From the IMG/VR virus record IMGVR_UViG_2529293215_000019: a stretch of DNA of 29,656 bases. One strand, written 5' to 3'. Each line of letters starts with the position of its first letter. Position 1 is the first letter of the stretch. This document shows, in pieces, positions 3,355-9,221 of the stretch. Made by a program: the position numbers and the translations under genes. The notes under the pieces were generated by a model. The model ran no database searches and was not told the DNA's origin. It saw nothing but the letters and a program-made list of their open reading frames with translations. The DNA is from a virus. Lineage: Duplodnaviria; Heunggongvirae; Uroviricota; Caudoviricetes.

Positions 3355-3626
3355 GTATTCGTATCGAAATTGGCGAACGTTATGTCGTTACCAGTGACAG
3401 CTTTCAGTTTATTCTCCACGAGAAAAAGAGAGCGGAAAGCGGTAAAAACGCCGGCCAGGAATGGCTGGCGGTGGTTGGTTATTACCCGAAATTAAGCCAG
3501 CTCGTTTCCGGCCTGATGCATCACGATATTCTTACCGGAAGCGCAAAGTCTTTTGCTGATTTAAACGCGCAGGTTGAGCAACTCAGCAAGCGTTGTTCAG
3601 AGGCTTTTGGCTCATATGGCCGTTAA
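3351..3626 (+). CDS. hypothetical early protein (P2 orf83 position)
   Basis: 91-aa ORF; ATG at 3351 overlaps upstream stop (ATGA); 3' end overlaps the first ATG of gene A by 11 nt. Confidence 0.5.
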   Translation: MSIRIEIGERYVVTSDSFQFILHEKKRAESGKNAGQEWLAVVGYYPKLSQLVSGLMHHDILTGSAKSFADLNAQVEQLSKRCSEAFGSYGR

Positions 3627-5898
3627 AGCCTCCGGGCGTTTTGTCCCTCCGTCAGCATTTGCCGCAGGCACCGGTAAGACGTTTACCGGTGCTTATGCAT
3701 GGAACGCGCCACGCGAGGCCGTCGGGCGCGAAAGACCCCTTACACGTGACGAGATGCGTCAGGTGCAAGGTGTTTTATCCACGATTAACCGCCTGCCTTA
3801 CTTTTTGCGCTCGCTGTTTACTTCACGCTATGAATACATCCGGCGCAATAAAAGCCCGGTGCACGGGTTTTATTTCCTCACATCCACTTTTCAGCGTCGT
3901 TTATGGCCGCGCATTGAGCGTGTGAATCAGCGCCATGAAATGAACACCGACGCGTCGTTGCTGTTTCTGGCAGAGCGTGACCACTATGCGCGCCTGCCGG
4001 GAATGAATGACAAGGAGCTGAAAAAGTTTGCCGCCCGTATCTCATCGCAGCTTTTCATGATGTATGAGGAACTCAGCGATGCCTGGGTGGATGCACATGG
4101 CGAAAAAGAATCGCTGTTTACGGATGAGGCGCAGGCTCACCTCTATGGTCATGTTGCTGGCGCTGCACGTGCTTTCAATATTTCCCCGCTTTACTGGAAA
4201 AAATACCGTAAAGGACAGATGACCACGAGGCAGGCATATTCTGCCATTGCCCGTCTGTTTAACGATGAGTGGTGGACTCATCAGCTCAAAGGCCAGCGTA
4301 TGCGCTGGCATGAGGCGTTACTGATTGCTGTCGGGGAGGTCAATAAAGACCGTTCTCCTTATGCCAGTAAACATGCCATTCGTGATGTGCGTGCACGCCG
4401 CCAGGCAAATCTGGAATTTCTTAAATCGTGTGACCTTGAAAACAGGGAAACCGGCGAGCGCATCGACCTTATCAGTAAGGTGATAGGCAGTATTTCTAAT
4501 CCTGAAATTCGCCGGATGGAGCTGATGAACACCATTGCCGGTATTGAGCGTTACGCCGCAGCAGAGGGTGATGTGGGGATGTTTATCACGCTGACCGCGC
4601 CGTCAAAGTATCACCCGACACGTCAGGTCGGAAAAGGCGAAAGTAAAACCGTCCAGCTAAATCACGGCTGGAACGATGAGGCATTTAATCCAAAGGATGC
4701 GCAGCGATATCTCTGCCATATCTGGAGCCTGATGCGCACGGCATTCAAGGATAATGATTTACAGGTCTACGGTTTGCGTGTCGTCGAGCCACACCACGAC
4801 GGAACGCCGCACTGGCATATGATGCTTTTTTGTAATCCACGCCAGCGTAACCAGATTATCGAAATCATGCGTCGCTATGCGCTCAAAGAGGATGGCGACG
4901 AAAGAGGAGCCGCGCGAAACCGTTTTCAGGCAAAACACCTTAACCGGGGCGGTGCTGCGGGATATATCGCGAAATACATTTCAAAAAATATCGACGGCTA
5001 TGCACTGGATGGTCAGCTCGATAACGATACCGGTAAGCCGCTTAAAGATACTGCCGCGGCTGTTACCGCATGGGCGTCAACGTGGCGCATCCCGCAATTT
5101 AAAACGGTTGGACTGCCGACAATGGGGGCTTACCGTGAACTACGCAAATTGCCTCGCGGCGTCAGCATTGCTGATGAGTTTGACGAGCGCGTCGAGGCTG
5201 CACGCGCCGCTGCAGACAGTGGTGATTTTGCGTTGTATATCAGCGCGCAGGGCGGGGCAAATGTCCCGCGCGATTGCCAGACTGTCAGGGTCGCCCGTAG
5301 CCCGTCGGATGACGTTAACGAGTACGAGGAAGAAGTCGAGAGAGTGGTCGGCATTTACGCGCCGCATCTCGGCGCGCGTCATATTCATATCACCAGAACG
5401 ACGGACTGGCGCATTGTGCCGAAAGTTCCGGTCGTTGAGCCTTTGACTTTAAAAAGCGGCATCGCCGCGCCTCGGAGTCCTGTCAATAACTGTGGAAAGC
5501 TCATCGGTGGTGATACTTCGTTACCGGCTCCCACGCCTTCTGAGCACGCCGCAGCAGTGCTTAATCTGGTTGATGACGGTGTTATCGAATGGAATGACCC
5601 GGAGGTCGTGAGGGCGCTCAGGGGCGCATTAAAACACGGCCTGAGAAGACCAAACCGTCAGCAAAGAAACGGAAGCCCGTTAAAACCGCATGAAATAGCG
5701 CCATCGGCCAGACTGACCCGGTCGGAAAGAATGCAAATTACCCGTATCCGCGTTGACCTTGCTCAGAACGGTATCAGGCCGCAGCGATGGGAGCTTGAGG
5801 CGCTGGCGCGTGGTGCGACCGTAGATTACAACGGGAAAAAATTTACGTATCCGGTCGCTGATGAGTGGAGTTGGTTTTATTGTTATTCAGAGCAATAA
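3616..5898 (+). CDS. A: rolling-circle replication initiation endonuclease (P2 gpA-like)
   Basis: ORF of about 760 aa from the first ATG (3616; the track start at 3574 is TTG); contains a paired-tyrosine segment AGYIAKYISKNIDGY typical of rolling-circle initiators; position and size match P2 gene A. Confidence 0.88.
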   Translation: MAVKASGRFVPPSAFAAGTGKTFTGAYAWNAPREAVGRERPLTRDEMRQVQGVLSTINRLPYFLRSLFTSRYEYIRRNKSPVHGFYFLTSTFQRRLWPRIERVNQRHEMNTDASLLFLAERDHYARLPGMNDKELKKFAARISSQLFMMYEELSDAWVDAHGEKESLFTDEAQAHLYGHVAGAARAFNISPLYWKKYRKGQMTTRQAYSAIARLFNDEWWTHQLKGQRMRWHEALLIAVGEVNKDRSPYASKHAIRDVRARRQANLEFLKSCDLENRETGERIDLISKVIGSISNPEIRRMELMNTIAGIERYAAAEGDVGMFITLTAPSKYHPTRQVGKGESKTVQLNHGWNDEAFNPKDAQRYLCHIWSLMRTAFKDNDLQVYGLRVVEPHHDGTPHWHMMLFCNPRQRNQIIEIMRRYALKEDGDERGAARNRFQAKHLNRGGAAGYIAKYISKNIDGYALDGQLDNDTGKPLKDTAAAVTAWASTWRIPQFKTVGLPTMGAYRELRKLPRGVSIADEFDERVEAARAAADSGDFALYISAQGGANVPRDCQTVRVARSPSDDVNEYEEEVERVVGIYAPHLGARHIHITRTTDWRIVPKVPVVEPLTLKSGIAAPRSPVNNCGKLIGGDTSLPAPTPSEHAAAVLNLVDDGVIEWNDPEVVRALRGALKHGLRRPNRQQRNGSPLKPHEIAPSARLTRSERMQITRIRVDLAQNGIRPQRWELEALARGATVDYNGKKFTYPVADEWSWFYCYSEQ

Positions 5899-5970
5899 AC
5901 ATCTGATTTAATTTGTTGCATAATAGTAAAATTGCTGTTTATCTGCATGTGGTAACTATTGATAATTATG

Positions 5971-5998
5971 TTGCTAATAATGTGTGCAAATTTATACT
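5971..5998 (+). promoter_or_regulatory. candidate sigma70 promoter for the cargo gene
   Basis: TTGCTA (5971-5976), 16-bp spacer, TATACT (5993-5998), in a very AT-rich 116-bp leader; followed by AAGGTGA SD and ATG at 6015. Confidence 0.5.
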
Positions 5999-6014
5999 GA
6001 AAAAGGTGAAAACG

Positions 6015-7847
6015 ATGAATGATATCTTTGTTCTTACAAGGGAAGAGCTTGAAACACTAGATTATAGTGTTTTTATGCATATACCAGTTACATTTCATGC
6101 ACATAAAATAAAAAAATATCTGGATGGGATTGCTGAATCATCAGAAAACCCCAAAGAGAAAAAATTAGCATCTCTTTTTGGTATGCTATATAGTTTCAAT
6201 TTGCAAGTTGTTAACAACACTCCATCATTTGAACCCCAAATGATTTGGGGTAATAAAAGATCAATATTGCCTGAAGATTTTGATGAGCAGGTGAATGACT
6301 GTCTTTTATATGTTTCTCAAAAAATAACCAATCCATTTTTGTTATCAAGAATATATGATGTTGTTTGGTGTAATAATCGGAAAAATAAAGACGTGGCAAT
6401 TAAAGCAATTGATTCCTATGCTGAAATGCTAAATATAGCAATTGAAAGACTAATAATAAAAAACGAAAGCATGGATGAAAGTGATTTAAATTGCTTTATT
6501 TTTGCTCGTGATTATATTGCTAGGGCTTTGCACATTAATAAAATGGTCTACCCTAGAAAATCAGAAGGAAACATGGCGATTAAAAATGCCATTCATTCTC
6601 TTTATAGTATTCAAAATGAAAGATTAATCTTTGAAGGTTTCAATAATTTGACTTGGTTTATGGTGCGTGATTTTGATGGGTATAATCTGCAGTATGCGGA
6701 AAATGCTGAGAAGATGGCTGAGCAGCATAAAGATAAAAAATATTATGATGCTGTAAAATCACTTTATATGACAAGTGCAGTTATTTATGAAAAAAATGGT
6801 GAGTATGAACGTGCCAAGAGATGTAAACTGGCATCTGCAAATATTACTATTAAAGTTGCAACAGATCGACCTGATAATATGGGTAAGATCTCTTGGTTAA
6901 GAACAGCTATCTCTGAATTAAGACAGTACGGTGGTGATAGCCAACAGATAGAAGATTTAAAGGAACAACTTGCTAATTTGAGAGAAGAAGTAAGGAGTGA
7001 ATATGTCACTTTAAGCCATTCTATTGATATTAGTGACTTGGTTGCTGAAAGTGAAAAAAAACTGACGGGGCGTTCTTTGCCCGATATATTCAAAGTTTTA
7101 ATGCGTGAAACACCGATTGAAAATATTGAAAGCATGAGGGAGCAAGTTTTAAGATTATCAGAAAAAAGTTTATTCTCTAGTTTTGTTGGAACAGAAATTA
7201 ATGATGAGAGTGGGCGTAAGGTATATACAATCCCGCCGTTGGATAATAAAAAAGATATGAGTGATGATGTTGTTATTGATCAATATCTAAGAAATTTCGA
7301 GATTACTCATAAGATTTTTGTAAACGGTGTCTTTGAACCTGCTCGCTATGTACTTTCTCAAGAACATGGCTTGACGTTGTCAACATTCGTTAAATTAGTT
7401 ACAACTAGTCCAATTGTCAAGCCGGAGTTTAGGGAGATTTTTAATTTGGGCTTTTACAAATTATGGCAGGGAGATTACATCAGTGCAGCTTATCTTTTAA
7501 TACCACAAATGGAAGGTATGGTTCGTTATTATTATGAGCTTAGTGGAAAGGATGCTACTAGATATTTGGATAAGGGATTAGAGGAGTCAACAAGTATTTC
7601 TCAGCTTCTAGATAAATGCAGAGATGATTTGGAAAGTATCTTTTCTAAGAATCTTGTTTTAACTATCGATGTTCTTTTTAATAGAAAGAGTGGGGCAACC
7701 TTAAGACATAAATTAGCACATGGTAATTTATATACTAATGCTTGTTACGATGAAACAACGACATATGCATGCATCCTGATTTTCTTTCTGTGTGCTTATC
7801 CTCTCCTACCATATTTTGATACTGTATTTGAACAGGGCTCTGTTTGA
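6015..7847 (+). CDS. hypothetical 610-aa protein in the A-cos variable locus; candidate anti-phage defence / abortive-infection protein with C-terminal HEPN-like R-x4-H motif
   Basis: Long uninterrupted ORF; first ATG at 6015 with AAGGTGA SD (track start at 5913 is TTG); markedly AT-rich by eye versus GC-rich flanking phage genes; occupies the P2 tin/old position; RHKLAHG motif at 7704-7724. No family recognised from sequence alone. Confidence 0.8.
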   Translation: MNDIFVLTREELETLDYSVFMHIPVTFHAHKIKKYLDGIAESSENPKEKKLASLFGMLYSFNLQVVNNTPSFEPQMIWGNKRSILPEDFDEQVNDCLLYVSQKITNPFLLSRIYDVVWCNNRKNKDVAIKAIDSYAEMLNIAIERLIIKNESMDESDLNCFIFARDYIARALHINKMVYPRKSEGNMAIKNAIHSLYSIQNERLIFEGFNNLTWFMVRDFDGYNLQYAENAEKMAEQHKDKKYYDAVKSLYMTSAVIYEKNGEYERAKRCKLASANITIKVATDRPDNMGKISWLRTAISELRQYGGDSQQIEDLKEQLANLREEVRSEYVTLSHSIDISDLVAESEKKLTGRSLPDIFKVLMRETPIENIESMREQVLRLSEKSLFSSFVGTEINDESGRKVYTIPPLDNKKDMSDDVVIDQYLRNFEITHKIFVNGVFEPARYVLSQEHGLTLSTFVKLVTTSPIVKPEFREIFNLGFYKLWQGDYISAAYLLIPQMEGMVRYYYELSGKDATRYLDKGLEESTSISQLLDKCRDDLESIFSKNLVLTIDVLFNRKSGATLRHKLAHGNLYTNACYDETTTYACILIFFLCAYPLLPYFDTVFEQGSV

Positions 7848-7874
7848 TAACGTATACGTTGAGGCATAAAACCT

Positions 7875-7921
7875 ATGCATACTTAGCTGCATCAATTTGC
7901 ACGAGGTATTTCAGTATGCAT
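7875..7921 (+). terminator. candidate stem-loop downstream of the cargo gene
   Basis: 9-bp inverted repeat ATGCATACT (7875-7883) / AGTATGCAT (7913-7921) followed by TTTTCTG; the loop is long (29 nt), so terminator function is uncertain. Confidence 0.3.
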
Positions 7922-7998
7922 TTTCTGCGTAATAGTAGGGATTGCTTGGTTTGGTAGTTGTAATTCAACTGCATTCAAACCGACCCATGAAGCGGGCG

Positions 7999-8017
7999 GG
8001 CGAGGCGGGGAAAGCAC
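7999..8017. other. cos site (19-nt cohesive-end sequence of P2-type phages)
   Basis: GGCGAGGCGGGGAAAGCAC matches the P2 cohesive-end sequence as I recall it; lies between the end of the early/accessory region and portal gene Q, as expected. Confidence 0.7.
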
Positions 8018-8158
8018 TGCGCGCTGGCGGTGGTGCTGATTTTATTTTTTCAGCGTCTGAGCGCGTCGTGGCGGCGTTTAGATTTTGCGCCGGGGCGTTG
8101 CTGTGTCTGCGGGCTGTTTTGTGCGGTGGTGAGCGTGTGAGGGCGTGATGACTGGGTG

Positions 8159-8181
8159 TAAAAAAGCCGCCCGCAGGCGGC
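8159..8181 (-). terminator. rho-independent terminator of the P-Q operon
   Basis: Plus strand reads TAAAAAA-GCCGCC-CGCA-GGCGGC; on the minus strand this is a GC-rich 6-bp stem, 4-nt loop, then a U-run, immediately after the Q stop (8187). Confidence 0.65.
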
Positions 8182-8186
8182 GATGT

Positions 8187-9221
8187 TCAGCCGTTGTCAG
8201 TGTCCAGTGAGTAGTTTTTAAAGCGGATGACCTCCTGACCGAGCCAGCCGTTTATCTCGCGGATCCTGTCCTGTAACGGGATAAGCTCATTGCGGACAAA
8301 GACCTTTGCCACTTTCTCAATATCACCCAGCGACCCGACGTTCTCCGGCTTGCCGCCCATCAACTGAAAGGGGATGCGGTGCGCGTCCAGCAGGTCAGCG
8401 GCGCTGGCTTTTTTGATATTAAAAAAATCGTCCTTCGTTGCCACTTCACTGAGCGGGATAATTTTAATGCCGTCGGCTTTTCCCTGCGGGGCATAGAGAA
8501 ACAGATTTTTAAAGTTGTTGCGGCCTTTCGACTTGACCATGTTTTCGCGAAGCATTTCGATATCGTTGCGATCCTGCACGGCATCAGTGACGTACATGAT
8601 GTATCCGGCATGTGCGCCGTTTTCGTAATACTTGCGGCGGAACAGCGTGGCTGACTCATTCAGCCAGGCAGAGTTAAGGGCGCTGAGATATTCCGGCATG
8701 CCGTACAGCTCCTGATTAATATCCGGCTCCAGCAGATGAAACACGGAGCCGGGCGCGAAAGGTGTCGGCTCGTTGAAGGACGGCACCCACCAGTAAACAT
8801 CCTCCTCCACGCCACGGCGGGTATATTTTGCCGGTGAGGTTTCCAGTCTGATGACCTTACCGGTGGTGCTGTAACGCTTTTCCAGAAACGCATTACCGAA
8901 CACCAGAAAATCCAGCGCAAAGCGGCTGAAATCCTGCTGGGAAAGCCACGGATGCGGGATAAATGTCGAGGCCAGAATATTGCGTTTGACGTAAATCGGG
9001 GAGCTGTGATGCACGGCAGCACGCAGGCTTTTTGCCAGACCGGTAAAGCTGACCGGTGGCTCATACCATCTGCCGTTACTGATGCACTCGACGTAATCCA
9101 GAATGTCACGGCGGTCGAGTACCGGCACCGGCTCACCAAAGGTGAATGCCTCCATTTTCGGGGCGCTGGCGGTCATTTTTTTTGCCGCAGGTTGCGGTGT
9201 TTTCCCTTTTTTCTTGCTCAT
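8187..9221 (-). CDS. Q: portal protein (P2 gpQ-like)
   Basis: 344 aa, the length of P2 gpQ; ATG at 9221 overlaps the stop of upstream P (ATGA); located next to cos. Confidence 0.9.
   Translation of the reverse strand: MSKKKGKTPQPAAKKMTASAPKMEAFTFGEPVPVLDRRDILDYVECISNGRWYEPPVSFTGLAKSLRAAVHHSSPIYVKRNILASTFIPHPWLSQQDFSRFALDFLVFGNAFLEKRYSTTGKVIRLETSPAKYTRRGVEEDVYWWVPSFNEPTPFAPGSVFHLLEPDINQELYGMPEYLSALNSAWLNESATLFRRKYYENGAHAGYIMYVTDAVQDRNDIEMLRENMVKSKGRNNFKNLFLYAPQGKADGIKIIPLSEVATKDDFFNIKKASAADLLDAHRIPFQLMGGKPENVGSLGDIEKVAKVFVRNELIPLQDRIREINGWLGQEVIRFKNYSLDTDNG

Follow-up and report, generated by a model that had tools for sequence, protein, structure and literature searches.

The locus examined here raises the question of whether, and from where, an accessory gene of a P2-like prophage is transcribed while that prophage is repressed. 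The DNA analyzed (hereafter, the window) is a stretch of 29,656 nt, and all coordinates refer to it and to its + strand unless the - strand is named. A first-pass annotation had read the gene directly downstream of the replication gene gpA (hereafter, the cargo gene) as a superinfection-exclusion gene with its own sigma-70 promoter (TTGCTA-N16-TATACT) and a strong Shine-Dalgarno (SD) sequence, and hence as a gene that could be expressed in lysogens. Whether and from where the cargo gene is transcribed in a repressed prophage decides how the missing phenotype of a published clone is to be read: the gene may be inactive, the phage panel may have been the wrong one, or the gene may not be expressed. 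Prophage accessory genes are already known to carry promoters of their own in many cases, and the finding is of modest importance.

The window matched at 100% a prophage adjoining pflA in the E. coli O157:H7 strain F8092B and three further E. coli genomes, and its genes were annotated from the 100%-identical RefSeq record NZ_CP038355.1 (window position = locus position - 401). The gene order is P2-like (Peduovirus), comprising an integrase, a repressor-like HTH protein, cox, the early genes, gpA (3616-5898; stop codon TAA at 5896-5898), which encodes the replication endonuclease and is the last early-operon gene of the P2 type, and the cargo gene (6015-7847), after which come, on the opposite strand, the portal gene gpQ and the terminase. 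The 19-nt stretch at 7999-8017 (+) is an exact match to the P2 cohesive-end sequence (cos). The cargo gene is the single, cos-adjacent gene between gpA and gpQ in this P2-like element, and thus occupies the cos-proximal hotspot reported in Rousset et al., 2022 (PMC9122126).

BLASTN homology with the backbone of other P2-like phages ends at ~5868-5880 and restarts at ~7956-7963, and the GC content is 0.31-0.36 in the intervening cassette versus 0.52-0.58 in the backbone. Of 5,426 complete E. coli genomes, 55 carry the cassette in full (55 of the 2,161 that match the flanks), as does one sequenced phage, vB_EcoM-569R9; the same site holds different cargo in other P2-like phages. Foreign composition and variable presence among syntenic phages are both features of a moron. 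We also noted that the last ~7-10 gpA codons fall in the variable segment, most P2-like homology stopping 20-30 nt before the gpA stop.

A classic moron is a promoter-gene-terminator unit. The cargo-private 3′ flank (7848-7956) contained no intrinsic terminator or terminator-like site on the + strand, and the first + strand terminator-like hairpin with a T-run 3′ of the cargo gene lies at 8021-8050, in conserved backbone just past cos. A search of the leader and the cargo 3′ flank against Rfam gave no family match. Terminator-like hairpins flank the conserved cos-side DNA, two at 8021-8077 (+) and a strong one at 8181-8166 (-), after gpQ, and these would halt transcripts exiting the hotspot and the late P-Q operon. 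A 68-aa ORF at 7942-8148, which overlaps a hypothetical protein in ON470601.1 and spans cos and two of the terminator-like hairpins, is probably not a real gene.

The cargo protein (610 aa, WP_000997853.1) comprises an N-terminal DUF7380 domain, helical repeats, and a HEPN-like C-terminal region. Pfam placed DUF7380 at residues 4-184 (3e-39) and DUF4209 at residues 524-590, the latter under the gathering cut-off (E = 0.0011; 19.5 bits vs. 22.3). DUF4209 has been assigned to the HEPN superfamily, in the C6orf70 family, whose members are often fused to TPRs (Anantharaman et al., 2013; PMC3710099). Our 21-sequence alignment shows the motif LRHKLAHGN to be invariant, with an Rx4H pair (R564 and H569) that conforms to the Rx4-6H pattern of HEPN domains. 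Two PADLOC HMMs of the PDC-S39 system, PDLC05011 (2.3e-84) and PDLC05012 (1.7e-83), each span nearly the entire protein. The AlphaFold model is all-alpha (mean pLDDT of 79) and helical at the Rx4H region, with low confidence at residues 566-577; a fold search against solved structures gave weak TPR-like matches at most, sequence searches against PDB and NCBIfam returned nothing useful, and DUF7380 was not mentioned in the literature searched. A hydrophobic C-terminal helix, TTTYACILIFFLCAYPLLPYF, occupies residues ~580-604 (window ~7752-7826) and probably corresponds to the ‘1 TM’ label in Table S5B of Rousset et al.; the eukaryotic C6orf70 HEPN family has also been described with one TM segment (PMC3710099). 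Judged from its sequence, the cargo gene is best explained as a moron-like accessory gene gained by horizontal transfer, whose product, HEPN-like at the C-terminus, is a candidate single-gene defence protein.

In the catalogue of Rousset et al., 2022, the same gene is hotspot system 13 (‘DUF4209’, 193 occurrences; Table S5B), and its S88 copy was cloned as pFR103, ‘Putative HEPN’ (PMC9122126). The S88 copy is ~99% identical to that in the window, and the protein in Table S5B begins MNDIFVLTREELETL. In window terms, the pFR103 insert starts at ~5817, ~80 nt inside gpA, and carries the identical leader and start without the early promoter Pe. The clone is tabulated with further systems that were tested, a table linked in the Methods to no detected activity on an 8-phage panel, and the three P2-hotspot systems reported active do not include this gene (PMC9122126). 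Given that a 99%-identical clone carrying this upstream sequence is tabulated with systems lacking detected activity, the superinfection-exclusion role first proposed is putative, and anti-phage function is best kept as a candidate annotation. The S88 clone result fits poor expression as well as a phage panel without a sensitive phage. The gene is, in any case, already catalogued, and its architecture is that of an ordinary prophage accessory gene.

The first step in tracing expression is the start codon, for which public records offer three annotations, namely TTG 5916 (ON470601.1, 643 aa), GTG 5949 (Logan/ENA cluster P0001, 632 aa), and ATG 6015 (RefSeq, 610 aa). A correction is of practical use given that these records disagree. 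The SD sequence AGGTGA (6004-6009, within AAGGTGA at 6003-6009) lies 5 nt before ATG 6015 and pairs with the 16S 3′ end at -8.5 kcal/mol, which is above chance; other prophage genes measured span -4.0 to -14.7 kcal/mol. The elements described in the first-pass annotation (TTGCTA, N16, TATACT, AAGGTGA, and ATG) all lie where it placed them, and only its 4-nt gap between AAGGTGA and ATG needs amending, to 5 nt (AAACG, 6010-6014). Other in-frame starts pair far less well (TTG 5913 and TTG 5916, -2.6 kcal/mol each; GTG 5949, -0.6 kcal/mol; GTG 6006, -0.9 kcal/mol), and every alternative between 5913 and 6075 is at -2.6 kcal/mol or weaker. Both sets of profiles begin at Met-6015, with DUF7380 position 3 aligned to residue 4 and PDLC05012 position 8 to residue 7, and 20/20 homologues (48-67% identity) begin at the same Met or one residue earlier. 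Initiation at an upstream in-frame TTG or GTG (5913, 5916, or 5949, within 5913-5951), giving a product of 632-644 aa in which AAGGTGA is merely coding, is very improbable: the ORF is open from 5913 and both ON470601.1 and the Logan/ENA cluster annotate upstream starts, but these candidates lack an SD, the extension is found in no homologue, its DNA does not align with the orthologues, and RefSeq uses 6015. The same evidence upholds the earlier view that TTG 5913 is probably unused. On sequence grounds, we are confident that translation begins at ATG 6015 via AGGTGA.

Between the gpA stop and this ATG lies a leader of 116 nt (5899-6014) with a GC content of 0.28, as the earlier description of a 116-bp AT-rich leader right after gpA had it. 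The leader RNA has no significant structure (folding z-score of 0.08), and an Ogr-type late-promoter dyad (TGT-N12-ACA) was sought and found absent on reading the sequence. The end of gpA and the first ~57 nt of the leader (5882-5955) share 84% identity with a different hotspot allele, which carries a DEAD/DEAH helicase cargo on the opposite strand, and 70 genomes match 5882-5955 only (helicase allele; M217 context examined). Given that this segment is common to the helicase allele, the cargo-private leader is only ~5956-6014. Comparison with locus L027 (3481-3576) points to ~5956, within the leader, as a possible cassette-swap breakpoint. Since the proposed motifs fall in leader DNA found only with this cassette, a promoter travelling with the cassette is a reasonable idea.

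The candidate promoter consists of a -35 element, TTGCTA (5971-5976; 4/6 to TTGACA), and a -10 element, TATACT (5993-5998; 5/6 to TATAAT), separated by a 16-nt spacer (5977-5992). The pair matches the sigma-70 consensus at 9/12 positions, including the A at position 2 and the T at position 6 of the -10 element. Sites of this quality are no commoner than chance in the region: a consensus scan of 5400-8400 found 12 at 9/12 versus 8.0 +/- 2.5 in shuffles. With a composition-corrected matrix of our own build (frequencies approximating those of published promoter compilations), TTGCTA/TATACT ranked first within the leader and second among + strand sites of the ~2.1-kb cassette, outscored by an intragenic + strand site at 7062. 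Same-length windows of the cargo coding sequence equalled or beat it 5.8% of the time (p = 0.058), a null that is itself biased in that coding sequence avoids in-frame TA-rich words; the ranking is suggestive and not significant. Each strand of the cassette has its strongest promoter-like site within the gene, at 7062-7090 (+; CTGACG-17-TATATT) and 7420-7392 (-; TTGACA-17-TAATTT); sites of this kind are usual in acquired AT-rich DNA and could give rise to spurious or antisense transcripts.

The proposed spacer is polymorphic across copies of the cassette. A 3-bp insertion in a TAA repeat at 5977-5979 (TAATAAT vs. TAATAATAAT) distinguishes copies with a 16-nt spacer (the window and 38/55 complete E. 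coli copies) from those with a 19-nt spacer (~17/55, or ~31%), the latter counted as the 17 of 55 full-length matches in the 95-99% identity band, of which those sampled span 224 versus 221 nt. The insertion was verified in CFSAN061761, 2013C-4974, and the IMG/VR locus L008, and the ORF is intact in both annotated genomes. A sigma-70 spacer is expected to be 17 +/- 1 nt, with transcription starting ~7 nt 3′ of the -10 element, and a 19-nt spacer sharply weakens a sigma-70 promoter. The TTGCTA/TATACT pairing would appear not to be strictly constrained, given that about one third of copies have the 19-nt spacer and keep an intact ORF. As an observation on the cassette itself, the TAA-repeat insertion splits it into two allele groups (compare L028, L029, and L008) and alters the spacing of any promoter across the site.

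The geometry of the pair also brings it into conflict with the SD. By sigma-70 spacing, transcription would start at ~6004-6006, inside the SD, giving an mRNA with a ~10-nt leader and the SD at its 5′ end, which is possible but unusual; the promoter pair and the SD barely fit together on one mRNA. As regards the claimed autonomous promoter, its site is the best in the leader and lies in cassette-private DNA, and against it stand the chance-level frequency of such matches, the alleles with a 19-nt spacer, the start inside the SD, and the lack of a terminator after gpA. We regard it as a plausible hypothesis of an ordinary type. From the sequence features above, the presence of some promoter within the leader seems reasonably probable, and the exact TTGCTA/TATACT pair being the one used in lysogens is possible but somewhat doubtful.

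Other leader sites would escape the clash with the SD. A promoter at TAAACA-17-CATAAT (5896-5924) or gTAACT-18-AATAAT (5952-5981) would produce a transcript with a 27-85-nt leader and a complete SD, a conventional 5′ UTR like the 44-46-nt leader implied for the P2 old gene. The former, with a leader of ~85 nt and the whole SD, overlaps the gpA stop and is an equal 9/12 match in the consensus scan; it lies, however, in the segment common to the unrelated cassette allele, where its spacing is changed, and is not among the best leader sites by the composition-corrected matrix, which lists CTGATT-18-TAAAAT (5903-5932; score of 5.8) instead. The latter has a -35 element of only 3/6 in the window but reads TTAACT in most other copies (T at 5952), making a 4/6 and 5/6 pair, and in the TAA-insertion allele one AATAAT keeps the same distance from this -35 element. 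Several relatives have their best promoter-like sites 45-93 nt before the ATG, a position that would suit such a promoter, but both candidates score under TTGCTA/TATACT by the composition-corrected matrix. A different leader promoter is, in our view, an unlikely though credible source of the transcript.

Exact-protein look-up in assemblies of Klebsiella, Kosakonia, and Enterobacter, and in viral and metagenome contigs, gave orthologous loci in P2-like prophages; a scan of genome contigs returned no relatives, and the exact-protein look-up for P0004 returned nothing. In all orthologues with flanks, the gene lies 3′ of gpA in the same orientation, with gpQ next in all but locus L035, and has 178-578 nt of non-coding DNA before it. 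Leaders of 11 orthologous loci were enriched in promoter-like sites relative to their own coding sequences (Fisher p ~4e-4, a test that overstates independence given that the relatives’ leaders align with one another). A -10-like TAnnnT occurs 10-22 nt before the ATG in 7/12 loci versus 2.5 expected; a TATAnT beside the SD in some relatives would give the same clash between start and SD, and the pattern may instead reflect an A/U-rich region before the SD. The -35 elements are not conserved among the relatives on reading of the MAFFT alignment. The leader gave no phylogenetic footprint: with the orthologues (62-67% protein identity), BLASTN homology starts only within the coding sequence, at 6042-6060, and an nhmmer profile built from the 200-nt leaders of seven relatives had no match in the window leader. 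The relatives’ promoter signal is not transferable to the window, as the leaders are not homologous.

The leaders of the orthologues have features of their own. Those of 62-67% identity (L011, L021, L031-L034, and L037) share, ~70-110 nt before the ATG, the block TATCATTTGAnA with a TTGACA-like word, followed ~30 nt on by a TTTGTACTAA-like block; these conserved blocks are absent from the E. coli leader and may be an ancestral family promoter or regulatory region. We considered CTGATT-18-TAAAAT (5903-5932) as the homologue of the relatives’ TTGACA-like block, which MAFFT placed ~80-90 nt upstream, and dropped it, given that nhmmer was unsupportive and the segment is common to the unrelated cassette allele. 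In several orthologous prophages (L033, L034, L035, L036, and L038), gpA and the DUF7380 gene are separated by between one and three small genes, of which one has a DinI domain, and L031 and L034 have a further gene after the DUF7380 gene; the hotspot thus contains more than one unit in these prophages.

The remaining source of transcription is the early operon itself. No terminator was found on the + strand between 5898 and 6015, nor between gpA and the cargo gene in three orthologues, and read-through from the early operon is an alternative route given this lack. Taken to its limit, this would leave the cargo gene with no dedicated promoter, as the distal end of a Pe-cox-B-A-cargo operon, expressed early in infection or upon derepression and silent in the repressed lysogen, the hexamers being chance matches in AT-rich DNA. 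Much of the evidence above fits such an arrangement: the gene is co-oriented with gpA and 116 nt downstream of it, the same layout recurs in every orthologue examined, the promoter-like match occurs at chance frequency, the spacer indel is tolerated in about one third of copies, the Pe-less S88 clone is among the systems without reported defence (PMC9122126), and a read-through transcript keeps whole the SD that the predicted start would cut. On the other side, the orthologue leaders are rich in promoter-like sites and, at 178-578 nt, longer than simple operon coupling needs; prophage accessory genes generally need lysogenic expression to benefit the host (PMC7067206), and several other hotspot systems were active on a plasmid from native upstream DNA (PMC9122126). 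We consider read-through as the sole source to be unlikely.

Our preferred reading combines the two sources. Lacking a 3′ terminator, gpA would be followed by read-through into the cargo gene from Pe during any period of early-operon activity; under repression in the lysogen, low constitutive expression would come from a modest sigma-70 promoter in the ~55-nt private leader, for which TTGCTA-N16-TATACT at 5971-5998 is the best candidate. If the leader promoter is this one, transcripts would start at ~6004-6006 with a ~10-nt leader and the SD as their 5′ end, and translation would proceed from ATG 6015 via AGGTGA, 5 nt upstream. Cargo transcription probably draws on both Pe read-through and a leader promoter, as we infer from the layout of the locus. 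The picture as a whole (a foreign, moron-like cargo, translation from ATG 6015, and the two sources of transcription) is offered tentatively, at a little under an even chance of being right in every part. A bolder version, in which a near-leaderless lysogenic mRNA starting at or within the SD keeps a potentially toxic HEPN effector very low, the 16/19-nt spacer acts as an expression dial between lineages, and full expression comes by early-operon read-through on derepression, strikes us as quite improbable.

Among described systems, the closest to the cargo gene are Rousset system 13 (pFR103) and PDC-S39, which are the same gene with ~1% difference between O157:H7 and S88; that study mapped no promoter, and no defence is reported for the clone. 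At the protein level, the cargo resembles the C6orf70/DUF4209 HEPN family in its C-terminal Rx4-6H motif, the helical or TPR-like repeats before it, and the terminal hydrophobic helix (PMC3710099); it differs in its sub-threshold DUF4209 score and in matching no solved structure, and RNase activity is only putative for the cargo. With prophage morons in general (PMC7067206, PMC9122126), the cassette shares foreign composition, variable presence, a site flanked by conserved modules, and its own candidate promoter, whereas it has no terminator either within it or between it and the upstream operon, and its promoter is a candidate only.

The P2 old and tin genes, which the first-pass annotation had invoked as a precedent, offer a further comparison. 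Both are noted in NC_001895 as lysogenic-conversion genes on one mRNA with a mapped start next to cos, and, like the cargo gene, they are non-essential AT-rich cargo in the same cos-proximal gpA-gpQ hotspot. Read upstream of the annotated transcript start in NC_001895, the old promoter is TTGAAT-17-TAAAAA, again a 9/12 match, with an implied leader of 44-46 nt; given this, a weak consensus alone is no argument against function. The comparison holds less well in other respects. The P2 pair lies on the opposite strand to gpA, transcribed from the cos side and insulated from the early operon, whereas the cargo gene here is co-oriented with gpA and has no intervening terminator; the P2 start is mapped, whereas that of the cargo gene is predicted from sequence with a ~10-nt leader; and the proteins are unrelated, Old being an AAA family ATPase and the cargo a DUF7380 protein with a HEPN-like region. 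By analogy, then, old and tin would back the general expectation that cargo at this site is expressed in the lysogen rather than the TTGCTA/TATACT promoter in particular.
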